In this document: in pieces, positions 13,005 to 57,980 of the stretch
How the letters are laid out: each line of letters opens with the position of its first letter
Position numbering within the stretch: the stretch's first letter is position 1
DNA from: Minisyncoccota bacterium
Lineage (GTDB): Bacteria; Patescibacteriota; Minisyncoccia; Phycocordibacterales; UBA9973
NCBI GenBank assembly: GCA_017991395.1
Contig: JAGOQQ010000006.1
Coordinates: forward strand, 66 to 64,065
Direction: 5' to 3'
Length of the DNA stretch: 64,000 nucleotides
Translations under genes and position numbers: made by a program
The notes under the pieces: generated by a model
Databases searched by the model: none
What the model was told of the DNA's origin: nothing
What the model saw: the letters and a program-made list of their open reading frames with translations, nothing else

Positions 13005-14063
13005 CTAAATTGTCTTCCCTGTCTTAATCACATGATCCACGAGTGTATACGTATATCCCATTTCATTATCATACCAACCCATTACTTTGACCAAGTTACC
13101 ATCTACTACACGAGTCATTTCGAGATCTGCGATTGATGCATGAGATTCACCGAGAATATCAGATGACACGAGAGGTTCTTCGGTGATTGCAAATATCTTT
13201 GACCACTTCGGATCTTGCGCTGCTTTTTTGAGAATTGCATTCACCTCTTGTGCAGTTGTATTTTTCTTTGAAATAAATGTGATGTCCACAATTGATCCCG
13301 CAGGTACAGGCACGCGAATAGAAATACCATCAAATTTGTCTGTGAGTTCTGGAAATGCTTTGGTCACGGCAATCGCTGCACCTGTAGATGAAGGAACAAT
13401 GTTTTGTGCTGCTGCACGTCCTTCACGTAAATCTTTTTTACTTGGACCATCAACAAGAGCTTGCGATGCCGTATATCCGTGGACAGTGTTTAGAATTGCT
13501 TTTTCGATACCGAGAGCTTCGTGGAGAATTGCAATCAAAGGTGACGCCGCGTTTGTAGTACACGATGCGTTTGAAGTGATATCACAAGTACCAAATTTGT
13601 CTTCATTTACACCAAGTAAAATTGTCTCACCTTGGACACTTCCGTCACTACCCTTTGCAGGCGCAGAAATAACAACTTTCTTCGCACCTTGATCGAGATG
13701 GAATTTTGCTTTATCAAATGCAGTGAAAAGTCCTGTTGACTCCACCACTACATCCACACCAAGCTCTTTCCATGGAAGTTTTGTAGAATCTTTTTCAGAT
13801 ACGAAGCGTACTTTTTTGCCATCGATTACGAGATAGTGTTCTGCACTGTCGGGATTGCTCGGATCTGTCGATGTACCGTGGACTTCAACTTTGCGGTGCC
13901 AGTTTCGGTAGACAGTGTCATGACGCAAAAGATACGCCAGGCTTTCGATTGAACCAAGATCATTGATTGCGACAATTTCAATTTCAGGTCGCTCCCATGC
14001 GATCTTAAGAAACGCGCGCCCTATTCGACCAAAACCGTTGATTGCTACTTTGATTGTGTTCAT
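13005..14063 (-). CDS. gap: Glyceraldehyde-3-phosphate dehydrogenase, type I
   Basis: INGFGRIGR Rossmann motif and the SNASCTTN catalytic Cys motif. Start set at MNTIKVAINGFG. Confidence 0.9.
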   Translation of the reverse strand: MNTIKVAINGFGRIGRAFLKIAWERPEIEIVAINDLGSIESLAYLLRHDTVYRNWHRKVEVHGTSTDPSNPDSAEHYLVIDGKKVRFVSEKDSTKLPWKELGVDVVVESTGLFTAFDKAKFHLDQGAKKVVISAPAKGSDGSVQGETILLGVNEDKFGTCDITSNASCTTNAASPLIAILHEALGIEKAILNTVHGYTASQALVDGPSKKDLREGRAAAQNIVPSSTGAAIAVTKAFPELTDKFDGISIRVPVPAGSIVDITFISKKNTTAQEVNAILKKAAQDPKWSKIFAITEEPLVSSDILGESHASIADLEMTRVVDGNLVKVMGWYDNEMGYTYTLVDHVIKTGKTI

Positions 14064-14120
14064 ATTGATATATTGTAGCAAAAAAAATTCCACGCACTAA
14101 ATTTCCGTATAGAATGAATC

Positions 14121-14575
14121 TTTCCCCGCCTGCCAAGGAGGGGCGACGCAAGGCGACGGGGGTGGTTTATTGCCTTTCTTCAAGTACCCTTCTAATATTC
14201 TCCAAAACCGACTCAAGGTTTGTATTTATTTCAGCATTTGTAAAACGAACCACAGAGATACCTTGCGATTGAAAAAATTCACTTCTTACCCTGTCATGCT
14301 CCATTGCTTCTTTGTCAAAATGTTGGACGCCATCAATCTCAACGACTACTCTTTTTTCTGAACAATAAAAATCAGCAATATATCTTCCAATACTGTGCTG
14401 TCTTCTAAGCTTGTAGCCAATTTTTGAATTTTTAATTCTACTCCACATTATCAATTCTTGTGGAGTCATACTATTTCTGAGATTCTTTCTTTGTTCTTTT
14501 AATTTTGTAAGATTATTTATTCTCATACACCACCCCGTCACTTCGTGACACCCCTCCTTGGCAGGTGGGGAAAAA
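14121..14575. mobile_element. DUF559 nuclease gene bracketed by ~46-nt imperfect terminal inverted repeats (candidate miniature selfish element)
   Basis: The upstream arm 14121-14166 and the reverse complement of the downstream arm 14527-14575 are ~85% identical (TTTCCCCnCCTGCCAAGGAGGGG...GACGGGGTGGT). The arms share tcacttcgtg + CCTCC hairpin motifs with other repeats in the window. Confidence 0.35.
14167..14526 (-). CDS. DUF559 domain protein (Vsr/restriction-endonuclease-like fold)
   Basis: LRRQ..IGRYIADF...VVVEIDG.QH......D..R...L...G..V.RF.N.E pattern of DUF559. Start set at the internal Met so the gene does not overlap the inverted repeat. Confidence 0.7.
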   Translation of the reverse strand: MRINNLTKLKEQRKNLRNSMTPQELIMWSRIKNSKIGYKLRRQHSIGRYIADFYCSEKRVVVEIDGVQHFDKEAMEHDRVRSEFFQSQGISVVRFTNAEINTNLESVLENIRRVLEERQ

Positions 14576-14584
14576 ATCAAAAAC

Positions 14585-16072
14585 CTACCCTATCAATTCT
14601 TTCAAAATTTTCTGAGCCAGCTGAGGATTTGCACTTCCCTTTGTCTCTTTCATCACTTGTCCCACAAGCGACATCAGTGCATTTTCTTTTCCGCTCTTGT
14701 ACGTAGCCACAACTGCAGGATTCGCATCAATAATTCTCTGTGCGATTTCTTTGAGGGCGCCTTCGTCGTTTTTCTGAATAAGATCATTCTTTTTTGCATA
14801 CTCAAGTGGATCAACATCATCAGAATAACAACCATTTATAATCTCCTTCATTTGAGGGGCAGAACATTGTCCATCTTTTTTCAAGTTTTGAATGATTTGC
14901 AACTTTGATGGACTTAAAAATCCATACCAATAATTCTGATCTATACTATTATTCTTTTGCTCTGAGATTGGGATTAACACATTTACAACCATGTTTATTG
15001 CAGAAATTAAATCCTCATTAACATTTGAAATTCCATATAGTTCAATTAACTCATCAAGGTACTTACTTTTTTTAATATCAAATACAAAAATATCAATTAT
15101 TTTTTCGATTTCTGCTTTGTCCCATCCAGCTTCATCTTTGTTGTCAAAATAATGACTCCAAATTTTCTGATATCTTGTTCTTATTTGTGATGGCAATTCT
15201 GGCAAGCTTGCTTTAAGTGCATCCATATCAAACACTTCTTTCAAAACAAGCTTTGGCAAATCTGGATCTGGGAAATACCGATAGTCGTGACTATCTTCTT
15301 TTTTTCGCTGAGAAAATGTAGTTTGTTTTGATTCGTCCCATCCGCGAGTTTCCTGAACAATTTCACTTTGTCGTCCCGCCTCATACAAATCTTGCATTCG
15401 AGCAAGTTCGTATTTTATTGCGCGTTCTACGCTTCGAAATGAATTGAGGTTTTTTACTTCTACTTTTGTGCCAAATTTGTCAGGATTGTCAGACAAAGAA
15501 ATATTTGCCTCCACGCGCATTTCACCTTTTTCCATATTTGCTTCTGACACACCGAGATACTGAAGAAGAAGCTGAAGTTCTCGTCCAAAGTTTGCCGCCT
15601 GCTCTGCACTGTGAATCACAGGCTCAGTCACAAGCTCCATGAGTGGCACGCCTGCGCGATTGTAGTCTACAAGTGAATAGTCACCTCTATCGTGTTTTGA
15701 ATTTCCAGTATCTTCTTCGAGGTGTACACGTGTAATTTGCACGCCAGCAAGCTCACCACCACTTACGATGGGAAATTTGTACTGCGAAATCTGATACCCT
15801 TTTGGAATATCTGGGTAGAAATAATTTTTTCGATCAAATTCTGTAAAATCTGTGGCAATAGTTGCATTGACTGCAAGACCTACCTTGATTACATTTTCTA
15901 CCGCTTGTTTGTTGATCACAGGCAGAGTCCCTGGATGCGCCATACATACCGGACAAATATTCACGTTTGGTCGCTCTTCGTTGGGATCATTTTTGCATCC
16001 ACAAAACATCTTTGAGCGAGTACTCATCTCTGCGTGGATTTCAAGACCAATTGTTGGATAGTAGTTTTTCAT
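14585..16072 (-). CDS. gatB: Asp-tRNA(Asn)/Glu-tRNA(Gln) amidotransferase subunit B
   Basis: IGLEIHAEM..SKMFCGC... N-terminus and a YqeY-like C-terminal domain. At 495 aa it is somewhat longer than typical because of an internal insertion. Confidence 0.9.
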   Translation of the reverse strand: MKNYYPTIGLEIHAEMSTRSKMFCGCKNDPNEERPNVNICPVCMAHPGTLPVINKQAVENVIKVGLAVNATIATDFTEFDRKNYFYPDIPKGYQISQYKFPIVSGGELAGVQITRVHLEEDTGNSKHDRGDYSLVDYNRAGVPLMELVTEPVIHSAEQAANFGRELQLLLQYLGVSEANMEKGEMRVEANISLSDNPDKFGTKVEVKNLNSFRSVERAIKYELARMQDLYEAGRQSEIVQETRGWDESKQTTFSQRKKEDSHDYRYFPDPDLPKLVLKEVFDMDALKASLPELPSQIRTRYQKIWSHYFDNKDEAGWDKAEIEKIIDIFVFDIKKSKYLDELIELYGISNVNEDLISAINMVVNVLIPISEQKNNSIDQNYWYGFLSPSKLQIIQNLKKDGQCSAPQMKEIINGCYSDDVDPLEYAKKNDLIQKNDEGALKEIAQRIIDANPAVVATYKSGKENALMSLVGQVMKETKGSANPQLAQKILKELIG

Positions 16073-16122: not shown

Positions 16123-16182
16123 GTGCTGAATTTATTTCAGCACCTCACAAATCAAGATCCTGAAACAAGTTCAGGATGACAC
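16123..16182 (+). repeat. Hairpin repeat pair: GTGCTGAATTTATTTCAGCAC + GATCCTGAAACAAGTTCAGGATGACAC (family D copy)
   Basis: The same GATCCTGAAAC..AGGATGACAC module occurs at 40766-40790 (and inverted at 40623-40647) and at 55609-55658. Confidence 0.65.
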
Positions 16183-16280
16183 AAAATACGAATATCAGTA
16201 TATCAAAAATAAGGCTTTTTTCTATACTTGACAATAAATTAATAATAGTATTTAATTCATTCAAATATAAAAAACAAAAA

Positions 16281-20731: not shown

Positions 20732-20849
20732 GTAATAAGTAGATAGTAGTAAATAGGAAAATCAAGATTTCACAAATCAGAAGAGCGGCGCACGTGTGCG
20801 CCGCTCTTCTGATTTTTAAAAATTCTGCATTTCTTGCTACAATATCTCT

Positions 20850-21948: not shown

Positions 21949-22821
21949 TTATGATACTGTCAATTTCAAAAGTTTTCTTCCATTGTCTCCTCTTCCGAGT
22001 CTTTTCAAGGATTTCTCCTTAATTTGCCTTACTCTTTCTCTTGTTAGTTCGAAGCGTTCTCCAATCTCTTCCAAATCTAATGGTTCATTGCCGTCCAATC
22101 CAAAGTATAAATTAAGCACCTCAGATTGTCGTGGAGTCAATACTTTCATTGCTTTTTGAATATTAATCTTCTTCGCTTCCTTCATCACAATGTGATCGGT
22201 CGCAGATTCCGGGTGCTGACACGCAAAAGTGTCGACAAAGGAACTACTTTCATCATTTGGCATTGGTGCATCCAATGACACATGGCGTGAACTCATATCT
22301 CGTAGAAACGGAATTTCGTTACTATTGAAATCAACATATTCATTTGCTATTTCTTCCGCCGTCGGCTCTCTCTCAAATTTTTGCTCGAGAACAGAGCTTG
22401 CTTTTTGCATCTTAAGTGCTGTGCTGATCTGATTAAGGGGCAGTCTCACCATTCTTGATTGCTCAGCGAGCGCTTGAAGAATGCTTTGTCTAATCCACCA
22501 CACACCATACGAAATAAATTTGAATCCCCGGGTTTCATCAAATTTTCTTGCAGCTTTGATGAGTCCAAGATTTCCTTCATTGATTAAATCAGAAAGCGGA
22601 AGTCCTTGATTTTGGTATTGTTTTGCAACAGACACCACAAACCTAAGATTTGCTTTTACTAATTTTTCCAAGGCTTGTTCATCGCCTTCTCGTATACGCT
22701 TAGCGAGCTCAATTTCTTCTTTGGGAGTGATCAATTCCACCCTACCTATTTCCTGAAGATACTTGTCGAGAGAACTTACATCTCTGTTTGTTACTTGTTT
22801 TGTGATCTTTAGTTGACGCAT
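21949..22821 (-). CDS. RNA polymerase sigma-70 factor (short RpoD/SigA-like, regions 1.2-4), paralog A
   Basis: MRQLKITK...YLQEIG...[13 protein letters not shown] (region 2), region 3 and a region 4 HTH (LTPRQSEVL...[17 protein letters not shown]). It is ~65% identical to the second copy at 34221-35090. Confidence 0.85.
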   Translation of the reverse strand: MRQLKITKQVTNRDVSSLDKYLQEIGRVELITPKEEIELAKRIREGDEQALEKLVKANLRFVVSVAKQYQNQGLPLSDLINEGNLGLIKAARKFDETRGFKFISYGVWWIRQSILQALAEQSRMVRLPLNQISTALKMQKASSVLEQKFEREPTAEEIANEYVDFNSNEIPFLRDMSSRHVSLDAPMPNDESSSFVDTFACQHPESATDHIVMKEAKKINIQKAMKVLTPRQSEVLNLYFGLDGNEPLDLEEIGERFELTRERVRQIKEKSLKRLGRGDNGRKLLKLTVS

Positions 22822-25366: not shown

Positions 25367-25434
25367 AATCCCTAATTCTATCCATTCTCTATCTCTACTT
25401 AGTTCTGAAAGCCACGCTATGGGTTCACAAAATA
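25367..25434 (+). repeat. Direct repeat DR1 (~65 nt); pairs with DR2 at 26067-26130
   Basis: DR1 ..ATCCCTAATTCTATCCATTCTCTATCTCTACTTAGTTCTGAAAGCCACGCTATGGGTTCACAAAA vs DR2 ATCCCTAATCCATTCCCTATCCTTAGTTAATTCTGAAAGCCACGGGAGTGGGTCGCAAACAAAA, about 80% identity. Confidence 0.6.
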
Positions 25435-25473
25435 AAAAGCCTGTCGCAAGACAGGCTTTTTATTTTGTGAACC
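25422..25473. terminator. Perfect 24/24-bp palindrome (GGTTCACAAAATAAAAAGCCTGTC gcaa GACAGGCTTTTTATTTTGTGAACC); likely bidirectional terminator
   Basis: Perfect inverted arms with an AAAAA/TTTTT-flanked GC core. Confidence 0.5.
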
Positions 25474-34220: not shown

Positions 34221-35090
34221 ATGAGACAGCTCAAGATAGTCAAATCAATTACAAACCGCGAATCAGCGAGTTTTGAAAAATATCTCCAAGAGATTGGAAA
34301 GGAAGAACTAATAACCGCACAACAAGAAATTGATCTTGCACGAAGAATTAGAGCCAACGATCAACAAGCACTAGAAAAGCTGACCAGAGCAAATCTTCGA
34401 TTTGTTGTATCTGTAGCAAAGCAGTATCAAAATCAAGGACTCGCACTTCCTGATTTAATCAATGAAGGAAACATTGGTCTGATAAAAGCCGCAAAACGCT
34501 TTGATGAAACGCGTGGGTTCAAATTTATTTCATACGCCGTGTGGTGGATTCGCCAATCAATCTTGCAAGCAATTGCAGAACAAGCACGCATTGTGCGATT
34601 GCCATTAAATCAACTCGGCTTTAAAAACAAGGTAAAAAAAGCACTTCTCGATCTTGAGCAAAAACTTGAGAGAGAACCTTCTGGTGACGAAATTGCAGAA
34701 GTGCTCGACACGACACGTGATGCGATTAGTGATACTCTACGTGTATCAATTAAGCATACATCGCTTGATGCACCGTTGTCTGACCATGAAGAATCAACTC
34801 TTTATGACTTAATCCAAGACACGGAATCACCATCCCCAATGGATCTGCTTGATATTGAATCATTACAAAAGGAAGTGGAGCGTTGCCTTTCAATTCTAGA
34901 AAACAGAGAAAAGGATGTAATCAAGATGTCATTTGGATTAACAGAAGATGGATATTCAATGACACTGGAAGAGATTGGAGAACGTTTTGATCTTACAAGA
35001 GAAAGAGTGAGGCAAATAAGAGAGAAAGCGCTGAGAAGACTTCGACACAGTCACGGAAGTCGACTTCTCAAAAAATTTCTCCTGCAGTAA
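34221..35090 (+). CDS. RNA polymerase sigma-70 factor (short RpoD/SigA-like), paralog B
   Basis: Same architecture as 21949-22821: MRQLKIVK...YLQEIG...[13 protein letters not shown], region 4 [18 protein letters not shown]. Confidence 0.85.
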
Positions 35091-40266: not shown

Positions 40267-40515
40267 CTATTTTATACTCTTTATTAGCTCCAATTTTTCT
40301 GACCGTGACATTGATTTTATCCTTGCTTCTGCTTTTGACGAAGTTGATCGATTTTTGAATTTTTTAGAATATACCAACGCGACTGGACGACGAACTCGAG
40401 TATACTTTGCTCCCTTTGAAGAAGAATTGTGCTCGTTTACTCGACGATTAATATCGGTGGTGATTCCGGTATAGAGTGTGCCGTCTTTGCACTTGAGGAT
40501 GTAGAGGAAATACAT
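40267..40515 (-). CDS. GIY-YIG nuclease-domain protein (UPF0213/YhbQ-like), copy 1
   Basis: YFLYILKCKDGTLYTGITTDINRRVNEHN GIY-YIG motifs; 82 aa. Confidence 0.75.
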   Translation of the reverse strand: MYFLYILKCKDGTLYTGITTDINRRVNEHNSSSKGAKYTRVRRPVALVYSKKFKNRSTSSKAEARIKSMSRSEKLELIKSIK

Positions 40516-40622
40516 AAATTAACTATAACAGAAGAAGGTAGTACGTGGATCGTAGAACGCGGAACGTTAAACGCAAAAGTACTAAACACAGGAACACTAA
40601 AACACGACATCATAGCATTCGC

Positions 40623-40790
40623 GTCATCCTGAACTCGTTTCAGGATCTCAAGAATTTTTTCCCCTCCTTGTTGAGGAGGGGTGCCTGAAAGGCGGGGTGG
40701 TGTGCCTCCCCTTGAGGGGAGGTGTCCGAAGGACGGAGGGGTAAGAATGAATTGAATGAATTTTAGATCCTGAAACGAGTTCAGGATGAC
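40623..40790. mobile_element. MITE-like 168-bp element with perfect 25-bp terminal inverted repeats (GTCATCCTGAACTCGTTTCAGGATC ... GATCCTGAAACGAGTTCAGGATGAC)
   Basis: The TIRs are exact reverse complements. The interior carries two GC-rich hairpins (CCCCTCCTtgttgAGGAGGGG; CCTCCCCttgaGGGGAGG) in an otherwise AT-rich context, with no ORF. TIR-like half-sites recur at 16156-16182 and 55609-55658. Confidence 0.45.
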
Positions 40791-40846
40791 ACGGGATTCT
40801 GCATTTCACTATCGCCTATAAACTATTCGCCATCACCTTTATTCTT

Positions 40847-40907
40847 TTACCCCTCCTCACATTCACTTCGTGTAATGTCGTCCTCCCCTCTAGGAGAGGC
40901 TTGAATT
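40847..40907 (+). repeat. 60-nt repeat (family C) copy 1: TTACCCCTCCTCACATTCACTTCGTGTAATGTCGTCCTCCCCTCTAGGAGAGGCTTGAAT
   Basis: 58/60 identical to 57921-57980. It shares the TCACTTCGTG + CCTCC hairpin architecture with 14541-14575 and 40976-41020. Confidence 0.7.
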
Positions 40908-40928
40908 CTGAATTCCCTACCCGCTATA

Positions 40929-40952
40929 GCTTTTCATAAGTGTTCCCTTAAC
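40929..40952 (+). repeat. Conserved 24-mer GCTTTTCATAAGTGTTCCCTTAAC (copy 2)
   Basis: See 4117-4140. Confidence 0.7.
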
Positions 40953-41020
40953 CTATCACCTATTTCAACCTCACCAGTCACTTCGTGTCCTCCTCTCCTG
41001 TCTGGGAGAGGAGGGATTCT

Positions 41021-41062
41021 TTCGGCGTTTGTCCGCGTTAAGTCTGCGCACAGTCAGCGTCT
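41021..41062. repeat. TCCGCGT-type box array in the 3' UTR of the ABC-F gene
   Basis: ttcggcgtttg tccgcgttaag tctgcgcacag tcagcgtct directly after the ABC-F stop. Confidence 0.55.
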
Positions 41063-53481: not shown

Positions 53482-53532
53482 ATAAACACGAGAAAACTAT
53501 AGCAAATATTTAGGAATTTTTCCAGTCATAAA

Positions 53533-53557
53533 CAAAAGCCTGAGGATACGGGCTTTT
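53533..53557. repeat. Hairpin ACAAAAGCCTGAGGATACGGGCTTTT, directly repeated (25/26 nt) at 54086-54110; the two copies flank the transglutaminase-like gene
   Basis: Both copies are terminator-like hairpins (AAAGCC..GGCTTT). One lies 25 nt upstream of the start and one immediately after the stop of the 53583-54086 gene. Confidence 0.6.
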
Positions 53558-53582
53558 GTTTTCTTTTGTTATAATTACAATT

Positions 53583-54086
53583 ATGGAAAAAACACCTTTA
53601 GAAAATGATTCTATCGTAACACTCAACGACGCAATCAGGTCACTTCAAAATAAAAACCTTGAGATGTATGATGCGGTCAACGAAACACGAAATCTTATTT
53701 ATTCTCACCGTCAATCACTCGGGCACACTGTTCAACCAAAATCGATCATGGAATCACGCTTCATGCCAGCCAAAGAAGCATTTGAAAAAGGAATGGCAAG
53801 CTGTGGTGTAACTGCAAATATCTCAGCAACGATTCTTCGAGAACTCGGGTTTCAAGTAAAATTGATTCATGGTGAATCAGAGGATTCTGTTGATCACGCA
53901 TGGATTGCTGTACTCAACAAAGACACAAACGAGTGGGACCAATTTGATCTGACACGAGAAGACCTCAGTATTCCAGAAACTCACAAAGTAAAAGAAATGG
54001 TTTACTCATTCGAAGATATCAGAGAACAAATTGAAAACGACCACAAAACTCTTCGTCAAAGAAGAAAAGAAAGAGGTTTTGAATAA
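53583..54086 (+). CDS. Transglutaminase-like (papain-fold Cys-His-Asp) protein
   Basis: GMASCGVTANISATILRELGF (Cys), DHAWIAV (His) and WDQFDLT (Asp) in the order and spacing of transglutaminase-like domains. Start set at ATG 53583; the track uses an upstream alternative start. Confidence 0.5.
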   Translation: MEKTPLENDSIVTLNDAIRSLQNKNLEMYDAVNETRNLIYSHRQSLGHTVQPKSIMESRFMPAKEAFEKGMASCGVTANISATILRELGFQVKLIHGESEDSVDHAWIAVLNKDTNEWDQFDLTREDLSIPETHKVKEMVYSFEDIREQIENDHKTLRQRRKERGFE

Positions 54087-54110
54087 CAAAAGCCCGAGGA
54101 TACGGGCTTT
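54086..54110. terminator. Bidirectional hairpin terminator (second copy of the 53533 hairpin) between the transglutaminase-like gene and dnaX
   Basis: aaagcccg aggata cgggcttt. Confidence 0.6.
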
Positions 54111-54111
54111 A

Positions 54112-55149
54112 CTATTCTTCCCTGCTCGAAATCTTGAGTGCGAGGATTTCGAGTGGGAGCGTGGGGATGAATGCATCAGAAAATTCTTCATACACACGAA
54201 GCATTGTGACGAGAGTTTTTGAGGCGAGAATTCCCTCTTTCTCTTTTGCGATTCCTTCGAGAAAGATTTTGTCACTTTCAGACAGCACACTTTCGATTTC
54301 CTTTTTCATTGTTGGTGCAAATCGTACGAGAAGACCTTGGCGAAATGTATGCATTACGAGTTTCAAAAAAAGCTTCATATCTACTTGTGCATCGTGTGCT
54401 TTGTGAACTACTTTCAAACATTTTTCTGCATCACGAAGTACCAATCCTTGGATATATTCATTGACCAACGTAGATTTAGGCGCTCCTGTTACTTTTTCGA
54501 TTTCATCCGCAGAAATTTTCTTGTCCGTCGAATAATTGAGTACTTTTTGCAAAATTCCAAGCGTATCGCGAAATGATCCATCGCCAGCGATAGCAATTAT
54601 TTCCGCACCCATTGGCTCAAGCACTATTCCCTCCTTCTTTGCAATATCAATCACCACATCTTTTAAAATATGTTCTGATGGTTTTTTGAATGTAAACACC
54701 TGACAGCGTGAGACGATAGTTTCTGGAAGTTTTTCTGGGTCGGTGGTCGCGAGTATAAAAATCACATGCTTTGGTGGTTCTTCGAGAGTTTTGAGAAATG
54801 CATTTGCGGCAGATTTTGAAAGCATGTGCACTTCGTCGAGAATATATACTTTGAATTTTGAAGAGAAAGGAAGTGAGTGTACACCTTCGGTGAGTTCGCG
54901 AATATCGTCAACGCCATTGTTTGACGCGGCGTCGAGTTCATAAATATCTTCTGGTGCACATCCGAGATTGCGTGAAAAAATTCTCGCCACAGAAGTCTTA
55001 CCAGTACCACGTGTACCTACAAAAAGGTACGCGTGTCCTACTGCACCTTTTTTCAGTGCCCCTTCAAGTACGGAAACAACATGGTCTTGCCCGACCACTT
55101 CTTTGAAATCCTTTGGTCTGTATTTTCGATAAAGTGAAAGCTCTGACAT
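54112..55149 (-). CDS. dnaX: DNA polymerase III subunit gamma/tau (short form)
   Basis: YRPKDFKEVVGQ..., Walker A GTRGTGKTS, ...ILDEVHML; start set at MSELSLYRKYRP. Confidence 0.8.
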   Translation of the reverse strand: MSELSLYRKYRPKDFKEVVGQDHVVSVLEGALKKGAVGHAYLFVGTRGTGKTSVARIFSRNLGCAPEDIYELDAASNNGVDDIRELTEGVHSLPFSSKFKVYILDEVHMLSKSAANAFLKTLEEPPKHVIFILATTDPEKLPETIVSRCQVFTFKKPSEHILKDVVIDIAKKEGIVLEPMGAEIIAIAGDGSFRDTLGILQKVLNYSTDKKISADEIEKVTGAPKSTLVNEYIQGLVLRDAEKCLKVVHKAHDAQVDMKLFLKLVMHTFRQGLLVRFAPTMKKEIESVLSESDKIFLEGIAKEKEGILASKTLVTMLRVYEEFSDAFIPTLPLEILALKISSREE

Positions 55150-55482: not shown

Positions 55483-55608
55483 AGTATTTTTTGTTTAAGA
55501 TTTAAAAATGCGACCAGGAGTTCAACCATAACACACTTTTTATAAAATACCTACTACGCGGAACTATGCAGACTAGACGCTGACAAATTTCGCGGAAAGA
55601 ATGCAAGA

Positions 55609-55658
55609 GATCCTGAAACAATACTGAAATAAATTCAGCACAAGGCACAGGATGACAC
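55609..55658 (+). repeat. Family D repeat copy (GATCCTGAAACA..CTGAAATAAATTCAGCAC..AGGATGACAC)
   Basis: Same modules as 16123-16182 but arranged with the small hairpin nested inside. Confidence 0.6.
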
Positions 55659-57920: not shown

Positions 57921-57980
57921 TTACCCCTCCTCGCATTCACTTCGTGTAATGTCGTCCTCCCCTCTAGGGGAGGCTTGAAT
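57921..57980 (+). repeat. 60-nt repeat (family C) copy 2
   Basis: 58/60 identical to 40847-40907. Confidence 0.7.

Follow-up and report, generated by a model that had tools for sequence, protein, structure and literature searches.

What is a lone nuclease gene, framed by inverted repeats, doing between gatB and gap? In the window (the whole 64-kb stretch of DNA analysed here), a DUF559 gene is the sole ORF of substance in the gatB-gap interval, and two inverted arms, at 14115-14170 and 14525-14579, bracket it from start to stop codon:

13005-14063/14093, minus strand: gap (glyceraldehyde-3-phosphate dehydrogenase), flanking the insertion downstream; the ortholog in the related locus L081 matches Pfam Gp_dh_N and Gp_dh_C
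14115-14170, plus strand: 3′ arm, the second triplex-motif unit, inverted; an inverted repeat with a three-strand scan match at 14124-14166(+)
14167-14526, minus strand: gene for a DUF559 (YcjD-family, Vsr-fold) nuclease; ATG at 14526, TAA at 14167-14169, 119 codons plus stop
14527-14579, minus strand: 5′ arm, one triplex-motif unit; an inverted repeat with a three-strand scan match at 14529-14570(-)
14585-16072, minus strand: gatB, flanking the insertion on its upstream side; the L081 ortholog matches Pfam GatB_N and GatB_Yqey

A nuclease gene alone between gatB and gap

A preliminary description of this DNA had placed a 360-nt DUF559 ORF alone between gatB and gap, and this is correct: the ORF encodes 119 amino acids plus a stop, and the protein matches Pfam PF04480 at E=3.2e-31 (107.9 bits; gathering cutoff 20.6) over positions 2-108 of 109 in the profile. 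It aligns with PDB 3HRL, a structural-genomics DUF559 protein (E=1.8e-29), and gives a weak match to the homing endonuclease I-Bth0305I (3R3P; E=0.003); residues D52, E63, D65, H69, and D78 do not vary among 26 aligned homologs. Against NCBIfam PRK09767, the E. coli YcjD equivalog, the protein scores 89.7 bits, below the cutoff of 218; it is thus a member of the DUF559 family and not a YcjD ortholog. Its other Pfam and NCBIfam matches are to related nuclease families (MTES_1575 and DUF2726), and no HUH/Y1 transposase family is among them. An identical protein is present in a public collection, where its source is named as a Candidatus Pacebacteria MAG. The annotated start of the gene lies later, giving 100 residues; the N-terminal stretch is conserved in the family, which favours the ATG adjoining the arm.

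DUF559, a family of orphan nucleases that is very common and includes E. coli YcjD, has, to our knowledge, no known role; we also know of no biochemical activity for any DUF559 protein of the YcjD type. Vsr itself recognizes a distorted, mismatched duplex, and no dcm-like methylase, the mismatch-repair partner, adjoins the window gene. There are no additional DUF559 copies within any of the loci examined or elsewhere in the 64-kb window.

Anatomy of the arms

The gene had been described as sitting between 46-nt inverted arms, and these are real: a repeat search returns 14115-14161 and 14533-14579 (47 nt, 81% complementary), and the contiguous pair 14159-14170 and 14525-14536, 92% complementary, carries the symmetry as far as the stop and start codons. 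In 100 shuffles, neither the 20-nt nor the 22-nt arm core has a chance match. Read 5′ to 3′ from its C-rich end, an arm has a C-rich block, CCCCNCCT, separated by a 4-nt loop from its complementary G-rich block, AGGAGGGG; then come a spacer that forms a small hairpin and a G/T block, GGGGTGGT, which in both arms is the mirror of AGGAGGGG with A replaced by T. On the sense strand of the gene the 5′ arm is TTTTTT-CCCCACCT-GCCA-AGGAGGGG-T-GTCAC-GAAG-GTGAC-GGGGTGGTG-T, with GTCAC-GAAG-GTGAC as the inner hairpin, and runs directly into the ATG. The 3′ arm, CCCCGCCT-GCCA-AGGAGGGG-CGACGCAAGGCGAC-GGGGGTGGT on the plus strand, begins directly after the stop codon, and its inner hairpin is degenerate. 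The C/G hairpins of the two arms have one mismatch each, at the same position, and single-strand DNA folding of the arms gives two adjacent hairpins followed by a free G-rich tail.

Which part of the element is conserved? Between the window and L081, the arms differ at 3/106 positions (2/54 in the 5′ arm and 1/52 in the 3′ arm), as compared to 43/357 in the coding sequence and 4/21 in the neighbouring spacer; the arms thus show the strongest conservation and are under constraint. The G/T third strand of the 5′ arm probably doubles as a ribosome-binding site: in the commonest arrangement among relatives, the third strand lies 3-8 nt before the ATG and resembles such a site, and in the other arrangement the purine strand of the hairpin takes this place. 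A promoter and terminator scan of 13900-14900 gave counts not above those in shuffles and no terminator at the arms; Rfam, searched with the region (E<=10) and with the whole window (gathering scores), returned two tRNAs and chance matches only.

The arms are units of a triplex-motif repeat family

BoxC, PIT, and triplex-motif repeats have been known since 1992 and are abundant in enterobacteria and cyanobacteria; BoxC was reportedly described by Bergler et al. Each arm in the window is a unit of this BoxC/PIT/TMECO intrastrand triplex motif family, for which the published TMECO pattern is CCCTCNCCC-N3-6-GGGNGAGGG-N3-GGGNGAGGG (Holder et al., 2015; PMC4666352). Both arms have (i) a C-rich block, a loop within the 3-6-nt range, and a complementary G-rich block, with one mismatch allowed; and (ii) 3′ of this hairpin, another G-rich block, the mirror image of the first with A read as T or A. 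Like the published repeats, these units are dispersed and mainly intergenic and include inverted pairs, as seen in the seven units of the window and in doublets at L010, L013, L016, and L018. The second loop differs: it is short in the published motifs (N3 in TMECO; 1-6 nt in the ITxF search) and a 13-14-nt hairpin in the window. In related loci, however, loop 2 is bimodal, with 3 nt in 86 units and a 12-22-nt hairpin in many others, so the window units are a variant of the family rather than non-members.

How general is the third strand? In 79 homologous loci plus the window, 211/227 asymmetric C/G hairpins have a mirror G/T strand no more than 45 nt away (exact in 175), whereas a control that asks for the direct-repeat pattern finds 100 within 45 nt and 46 exact. 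The three strands also covary between variants, e.g., CCCCGCCTT / AAGGCGGGG / GGGGCGGTT in L043, L049, and L068. Triplex formation has been observed in vitro, for the E. coli sequence only, and went undetected in vivo (PMC4666352).

A scan of the whole 64-kb window for the three-strand motif (C-rich, complementary G-rich, mirror G/T) finds exactly seven units, all intergenic, and none in ten shuffles. Two are the arms, four lie in one spacer at 40661-41012, and one is at 57924-57974:

40661-40702 and 40705-40741, plus strand: two tandem solo units, found by the three-strand scan and single-strand fold
40850-40899 and 40955-41012, minus strand: two further solo units, which correspond to the repeat earlier called family C and to the repeat at 40976-41020
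57924-57974, minus strand: solo unit, 97% identical to that at 40850-40899

Several of the seven units have a CACGAAGTG hairpin core in common, and the unit at 40661-40702 has the T-run prefix and the GGGGTGGTG tail of the DUF559 5′ arm. The preliminary description had likened the arms to repeats at 40847, 57921, and 40976-41020, and the scan places all of these among the seven units; their membership in a known family had been missed. It had further proposed that the short repeats derive from a DUF559-carrying element. That arms, gene, and repeats belong together is borne out; the repeats may have come from the element, or the reverse. A GIY-YIG gene adjoins the other unit cluster of the window.

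The gene and its units recur across phyla

Do other DUF559 genes keep the same company? A set of 79 loci was collected from species-representative genomes with the DUF559 profile; the set is made up of the closest relatives of the window protein and does not sample DUF559 at random. A unit lies beside the gene in 74/79 of these homologous loci, and on both sides in 57; a few loci have no units at all. This answers the suggestion that relatives might carry the same terminal repeats, and it is the opposite of what had been named as evidence against the pairing, namely DUF559 copies lacking repeats. Unit density is 6.64/kb beside DUF559 and 0.219/kb elsewhere in the same loci, a 30-fold difference, and a hairpin is present in 86/128 DUF559-adjacent gaps vs. 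21/279 of the remaining gaps (Fisher p=8e-36). Of the loci with units on both sides, 42 have the proximal pair inverted and 15 have it direct (p=5e-4); most commonly (36 loci) both third strands face the gene, as in the window, and in 6 loci they face outward. A locus usually has a single DUF559 copy, and few copies were seen in any one genome. Many annotated homologs have odd P- and G-rich N- or C-terminal tails because their ORFs read into the arms, an annotation artefact.

The association is not confined to one genomic neighbourhood or one branch of bacteria. Neighbour genes are diverse, with 103 clusters among 148 neighbour ORFs, and more distant homologs in cultured organisms (39-44% identity) also have units beside the gene: in Deinococcus proteolyticus and Sinorhizobium meliloti, DUF559 is bracketed by inverted units, and two DUF559 copies on cyanobacterial plasmids have units alongside. 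In Pseudanabaena, the DUF559 module with its units lies in frame inside an open MmeI-family gene. A YcjD-family DUF559 gene nested in mostly inverted units recurs in Patescibacteria, Cyanobacteria, Nitrospirota, Deinococcota, and Alpha- and Gammaproteobacteria, and the association spans at least six phyla. Single or paired units are also scattered in other intergenic regions of the genomes that carry the module.

Does the transcript, rather than the DNA, explain the arms? If the arms paired in RNA, a long 5′/3′ stem could excise, stabilize, or silence the mRNA of a potentially toxic nuclease, e.g., with RNase III, in line with the earlier proposal that a long stem protects and regulates the gene. 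Folding does predict a terminal stem of ~50 bp in a 496-nt transcript (MFE -152.6 kcal/mol, z=-6.0); the arms of L081 are complementary at every position of the 20-nt hairpin-1 region, and Shine-Dalgarno-like purine runs in the arms stand right before the ATG. The stem, however, explains neither the occurrence of units in both orientations relative to the gene nor the conserved mirror third strand, which is useless to a duplex. The inner hairpins of the two arms are often unrelated yet fold locally (e.g., L002, L012, L015, and L059), units also occur solo in other spacers, and there are zero Rfam family matches; PIT elements, as far as the account cited in PMC4666352 goes, have no promoter or terminator activity. 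The role of the predicted fold as a protective or regulatory stem is poorly supported, and we regard RNA control as very unlikely to be what the arms are for.

Gene and arms as one insertion

Is the gene an old resident of the gatB-gap junction or a newcomer? In close relatives, with DUF559 90% identical, the gatB-DUF559-gap order is kept. By contrast, among 80 metagenomic loci in which gap is 78-87% identical to that of the window, none has DUF559 within 3 kb of gap. In 40/80 of these loci gatB lies upstream of gap, with a 19-160-nt spacer in about 20 of the 40, and triplex-motif units are present in 0/40 gatB-gap spacers. Empty sites, suggested earlier as something to look for, are thus found and hold no unit, although the relatives with an empty junction are fairly distant (gatB about 60% identical); other relatives have unrelated small ORFs at the junction, again without units. 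Ancestrally, then, the gatB-gap junction was tight or variable, and the ~465-nt module, arms included, is an addition.

The edges of the module are sharp. In L043 and L068, paralogs within one MAG, and in L049 from a second MAG, homology is confined exactly to the sequence between the outer arm ends, ACACAACCGCCCCG...CGGGGCGGTTGTGT, and the flanks are unrelated. The gene and its two arms are therefore one discrete ~465-nt module inserted between gatB and gap, and the idea that DUF559 and its arms behave as an insertion gains from both the empty junctions and the shared ends of the three copies. L012 and L015 have the same flanks, with the DUF559 segment inverted between them and the breakpoints in the palindromic first hairpins. 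Movement must be rare, if it occurs at all, and residence can be long: some syntenic groups hold the gene at one site, as in a group of nine loci.

Sharp termini, inverted arms, and short gene-less relatives are also what an ordinary transposon would leave: the arms would be terminal inverted repeats, as in a TIR element or a MITE, served by a DDE-type transposase encoded elsewhere, with DUF559 a passenger. Yet the ends of L043, L068, and L049 have no target-site duplication, no transposase is near any examined locus or, according to Holder et al. (PMC4666352), near TMECO sites, and the arms form a conserved three-strand fold, not a simple protein-binding repeat. This makes the transposon explanation extremely improbable. 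An integron cassette with attC sites was also considered and dropped: the repeats flank both sides in inverted orientation, and no integrase is among the ORFs listed around the element.

Could the repeats be just a landing site? A free-standing DUF559 endonuclease could home, cutting between two tail-to-tail units and copying itself in, while the repeats spread by other means. The gene-less tail-to-tail doublets (GGGGTGGTGA..spacer..TTACCACCCC) in L010, L013, L016, and L018 look like the commonest arrangement minus the gene, and E. coli has five inverted TMECO pairs (PMC4666352). In the commonest arrangement itself, the two third strands directly adjoin the start and stop codons; empty sites exist; the fold is related to that of the EDxHD homing endonuclease I-Bth0305I, as the weak 3R3P match indicates; and the in-frame position within the Pseudanabaena MmeI-family gene would suit a homing element. 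But homing into a doublet predicts a doublet at the empty site, and the empty gatB-gap junctions of the fairly distant relatives have none, so here the arms probably arrived together with the gene. The arms are likewise included in the homology among L043, L068, and L049, which stops at their outer edges; in the six loci of the second arrangement, the third strands point outward; and the low copy number, per locus and per genome, also speaks against homing. We therefore consider homing unlikely.

Alternatively, the association may be indirect: the repeats would destabilize DNA and gather at variable junctions, where DUF559 is one of many accessory genes to land. TMECO sites are indeed more rearranged than control spacers (PMC4666352), various other small ORFs occupy the gatB-gap junction of relatives, the L012/L015 inversion runs through the hairpins, and the other unit cluster of the window has a GIY-YIG gene next to it. 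However, the other small genes inserted at gatB-gap carry no units, and within the same loci only the DUF559 flanks show the 30-fold enrichment. An association across at least six phyla, a strong bias toward inverted orientation, and arms that abut exactly at the start and stop codons are also hard to obtain from chance landings, and an indirect association appears decidedly unlikely.

YcjD and BoxC in E. coli

What does the YcjD locus of E. coli look like? In E. coli K-12, the 3′ end of ycjD lies inside a degenerate unit, and an intact unit comes next, ahead of fabI. The spacer between ycjD and fabI (= envM), on the upstream side of fabI, is presumably the original BoxC site. The ycjD-fabI unit fits the TMECO pattern and is itself a dispersed repeat, matched at a median of 17 places in each E. 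coli genome. Every E. coli genome, also one that lacks ycjD, has at least one BoxC-like place; genomes without the ycjD locus have a median of 8 such places (1-18) and those with ycjD a median of 20 (11-27), a contrast that is suggestive only and not independent evidence, since ycjD presence tracks phylogroup. The gene is found in phylogroups A/B1/C, and the eef island in B2/D/E/F (PMC12817139). Strains without ycjD were considered as a clean empty site and rejected because the eefRABCD efflux island replaces the region (PMC12817139); the E. coli locus is therefore uninformative on excision.

A partner enzyme for orphan repeats?

If gene and units arrive together, what does one do for the other? 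By analogy to the REP/RAYT pair, we propose a partnership in which the Vsr-fold nuclease acts on the folded units inserted with its gene; we consider this an even call. The taste of Vsr for mismatches, set beside the hairpins, the fixed mismatch, and the potential triplex of the units, suggests structure-specific nicking. The nuclease would recognize a folded unit (a hairpin, cruciform, or triplex extruded from the inverted pair) and would nick or cut at the extruded unit; the point of recognition may be the conserved mismatch in the stem. Cutting would then spread or maintain the units, or let the block of gene plus arms move. The gene-carrying copy would be the master, and the solo units at 40661-41012 and 57924-57974 its gene-less relatives. 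Purine-rich strands of the arms would meanwhile supply the ribosome-binding site, and sequestration in the hairpin would probably keep nuclease expression low.

The same package of gene and repeat in many phyla suggests a broader reading, in which DUF559 is the partner enzyme of these repeats wherever they occur. No mobility function has ever been found near them (Holder et al., 2015; PMC4666352), and the words endonuclease, DUF, and ycjD are absent from the text of that paper. A literature search that reached few subscription journals found no link between DUF559 or ycjD and BoxC/PIT repeats. Tentatively, YcjD-family DUF559 proteins may be the missing partner of BoxC/PIT/triplex repeats, a structure-specific Vsr-fold nuclease that drives their spread or upkeep; together they would be the second REPIN-RAYT-like system, with a mechanism of its own and a range from CPR bacteria to E. 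coli. This is a possibility on which we would not yet insist. Solo units match the arms of their own locus best in only 15/61 cases and among the top five in 26/61, and with so mixed a resemblance the picture of one enzyme with one cognate repeat is not clean.

Why would such a pairing matter? It gives two orphans, a repeat family and DUF559, a function that can be tested. If true, these would be the second family of short repeats, after REP/RAYT, with a dedicated single-copy nuclease, here a non-HUH enzyme with a possible non-B-DNA substrate. In vitro, triplex-motif repeats fold into very stable triplexes; in genomes, they mark unstable sites (PMC4666352).

Comparison with known systems

How does the module compare to other systems in which a repeat or a nuclease travels? 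Rickettsia palindromic elements (RPEs) are reported to lie in frame inside protein-coding genes, and we know of no nuclease gene associated with them. They resemble the Pseudanabaena module and its units in lying in frame within an open gene; their sequence is unrelated, and the window units are instead all intergenic. Vsr, I-Bth0305I (3R3P), and 3HRL have the nuclease fold and the E-x-D...H...D motif in common with the window protein. I-Bth0305I is encoded by a mobile intron, whereas the window DUF559 is free-standing, lies outside any intron or intein, and lacks an additional DNA-binding domain.

REP/REPIN-RAYT systems come closer (PMC3116915; PMC5581495). There, as here, (i) a single nuclease-type gene lies between inverted hairpin repeats; (ii) the repeat is scattered genome-wide as singlets and inverted doublets; and (iii) the gene usually has a low copy number and is often inherited vertically at a fixed site. 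Of the two features that define a REPtron, the module has inverted flanking copies of a dispersed repeat and lacks a HUH/Y1 transposase. RAYTs are HUH/Y1 transposases of the IS200/IS605 type, and the window enzyme belongs to DUF559, with a Vsr fold of the PD-(D/E)XK-like kind; the window repeat has a third mirror strand, and REPs do not.

The repeat itself is closest to BoxC/PIT/TMECO. Both place a loop between a C-rich strand and its G-rich complement, and follow this hairpin with a second loop and a mirror G-rich strand in which A becomes T; both are dispersed, mostly intergenic, strand-unbiased, often in inverted pairs, and commonly carry a single mismatched triplet. The window units differ from the published TMECO in the second loop (a 13-14-nt extra hairpin, not 3 nt), in the core (CCCCNCCT/AGGNGGGG vs. 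CCCTCNCCC), and in the host, an AT-rich CPR bacterium unmentioned in the 2015 survey, from which the link to a nuclease gene is likewise absent (PMC4666352). The two parts are known separately; their pairing, seemingly new, is REPtron-like, with a different enzyme and a triplex-type repeat.

DUF559 within and beside methylase genes

The Vsr-fold nuclease gene DUF559 and its flanking triplex-motif units (BoxC/PIT/TMECO-type repeats) can lie within a coding sequence. In Pseudanabaena biceps PCC 7429 (L065, 2435-5941), both have been inserted, in frame and midway through the MmeI_Mtase domain, into an MmeI-family restriction-modification ORF, which remains open at 1168 aa; additional units are translated at other places in this ORF, e.g., as SPPSKEGQGVV. 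Six other DUF559 homologue loci (L044, L046, L058, L070, L074, and L078) carry such an in-frame insertion. On a plasmid of Synechocystis sp. B12 (L174, 834-3312), DUF559 separates a DUF1156 fragment from the remainder of an N6_N4 methylase, as if it had split a DNA methyltransferase gene; on the Picosynechococcus PCC 7002 plasmid pAQ6 (L172), DUF559 adjoins a DUF1156 gene. Together, these plasmids are a second case, besides the MmeI-family ORFs, in which DUF559 is linked to a methylase gene.

An inversion at the arms and a variable gatB-gap junction

In two related genomes that share both flanks, the DUF559 segment lies in opposite orientations (L012, 3955-4451 vs. L015, 3929-4367), and the inversion breakpoints fall inside the first hairpins of the arms, which are palindromic. 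The gatB-gap spacer, which houses DUF559 in the window, is a variable spot in relatives (L092-L171): it is either empty (19-160 nt) or filled with various small ORFs, among them a 74-aa ORF that recurs (M..KLGKYKHYKG..) and others that resemble membrane proteins.

Other repeats and a second nuclease gene in the window

The window has just one cluster of triplex-motif units, and it adjoins a nuclease gene other than DUF559:

40270-40515 (-), GIY-YIG nuclease gene, 82 aa (Pfam E=3.4e-17)
40516-41062, adjoining spacer with four triplex-motif units

Is the placement of a second small nuclease gene by these units significant? It may or may not be due to chance.

A separate hairpin repeat family, ATCCTGAAAC..GTTCAGGAT, is distinct from the triplex-motif units; one inverted pair of its hairpins frames two tandem units (40661-40741). 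The window also contains two stretches of long inverted similarity separated by about 11-13 kb, probably paralogous genes that run in opposite directions, and GC-stem hairpins, which resemble ordinary terminators and have no relation to the triplex-motif units:

16155-16185, 40618-40651, 40762-40793, 55594-55619, ATCCTGAAAC..GTTCAGGAT hairpins
16116-16140/55624-55648, further pair of this family
22423-22767 and 34275-34619, inverted similarity, 345 nt at 72%
21998-22073 and 34966-35041, inverted similarity, 76 nt at 84%
53531-53565 and 54085-54119; 25422-25473; 20768-20821, hairpins with a perfect or nearly perfect GC stem and A/T-rich flanks

The E. coli ycjD-fabI locus

The E. coli DUF559 gene, ycjD, is present in the sapF-fabI region (L090, L091) of 3378 of the 5426 complete genomes; in those lacking it, the site is occupied by the RND efflux island eefRABCD, which has already been described (PMC12817139), and BoxC-like places are fewer in the sampled genomes without the ycjD locus. 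In E. coli K-12, the ycjD-fabI spacer (L080, 7290-7420) contains a second copy of part of the ycjD 3' end followed by a degenerate BoxC-like unit, both placed between ycjD and the intact BoxC unit, which suggests repeated rearrangement at the ycjD 3' end.
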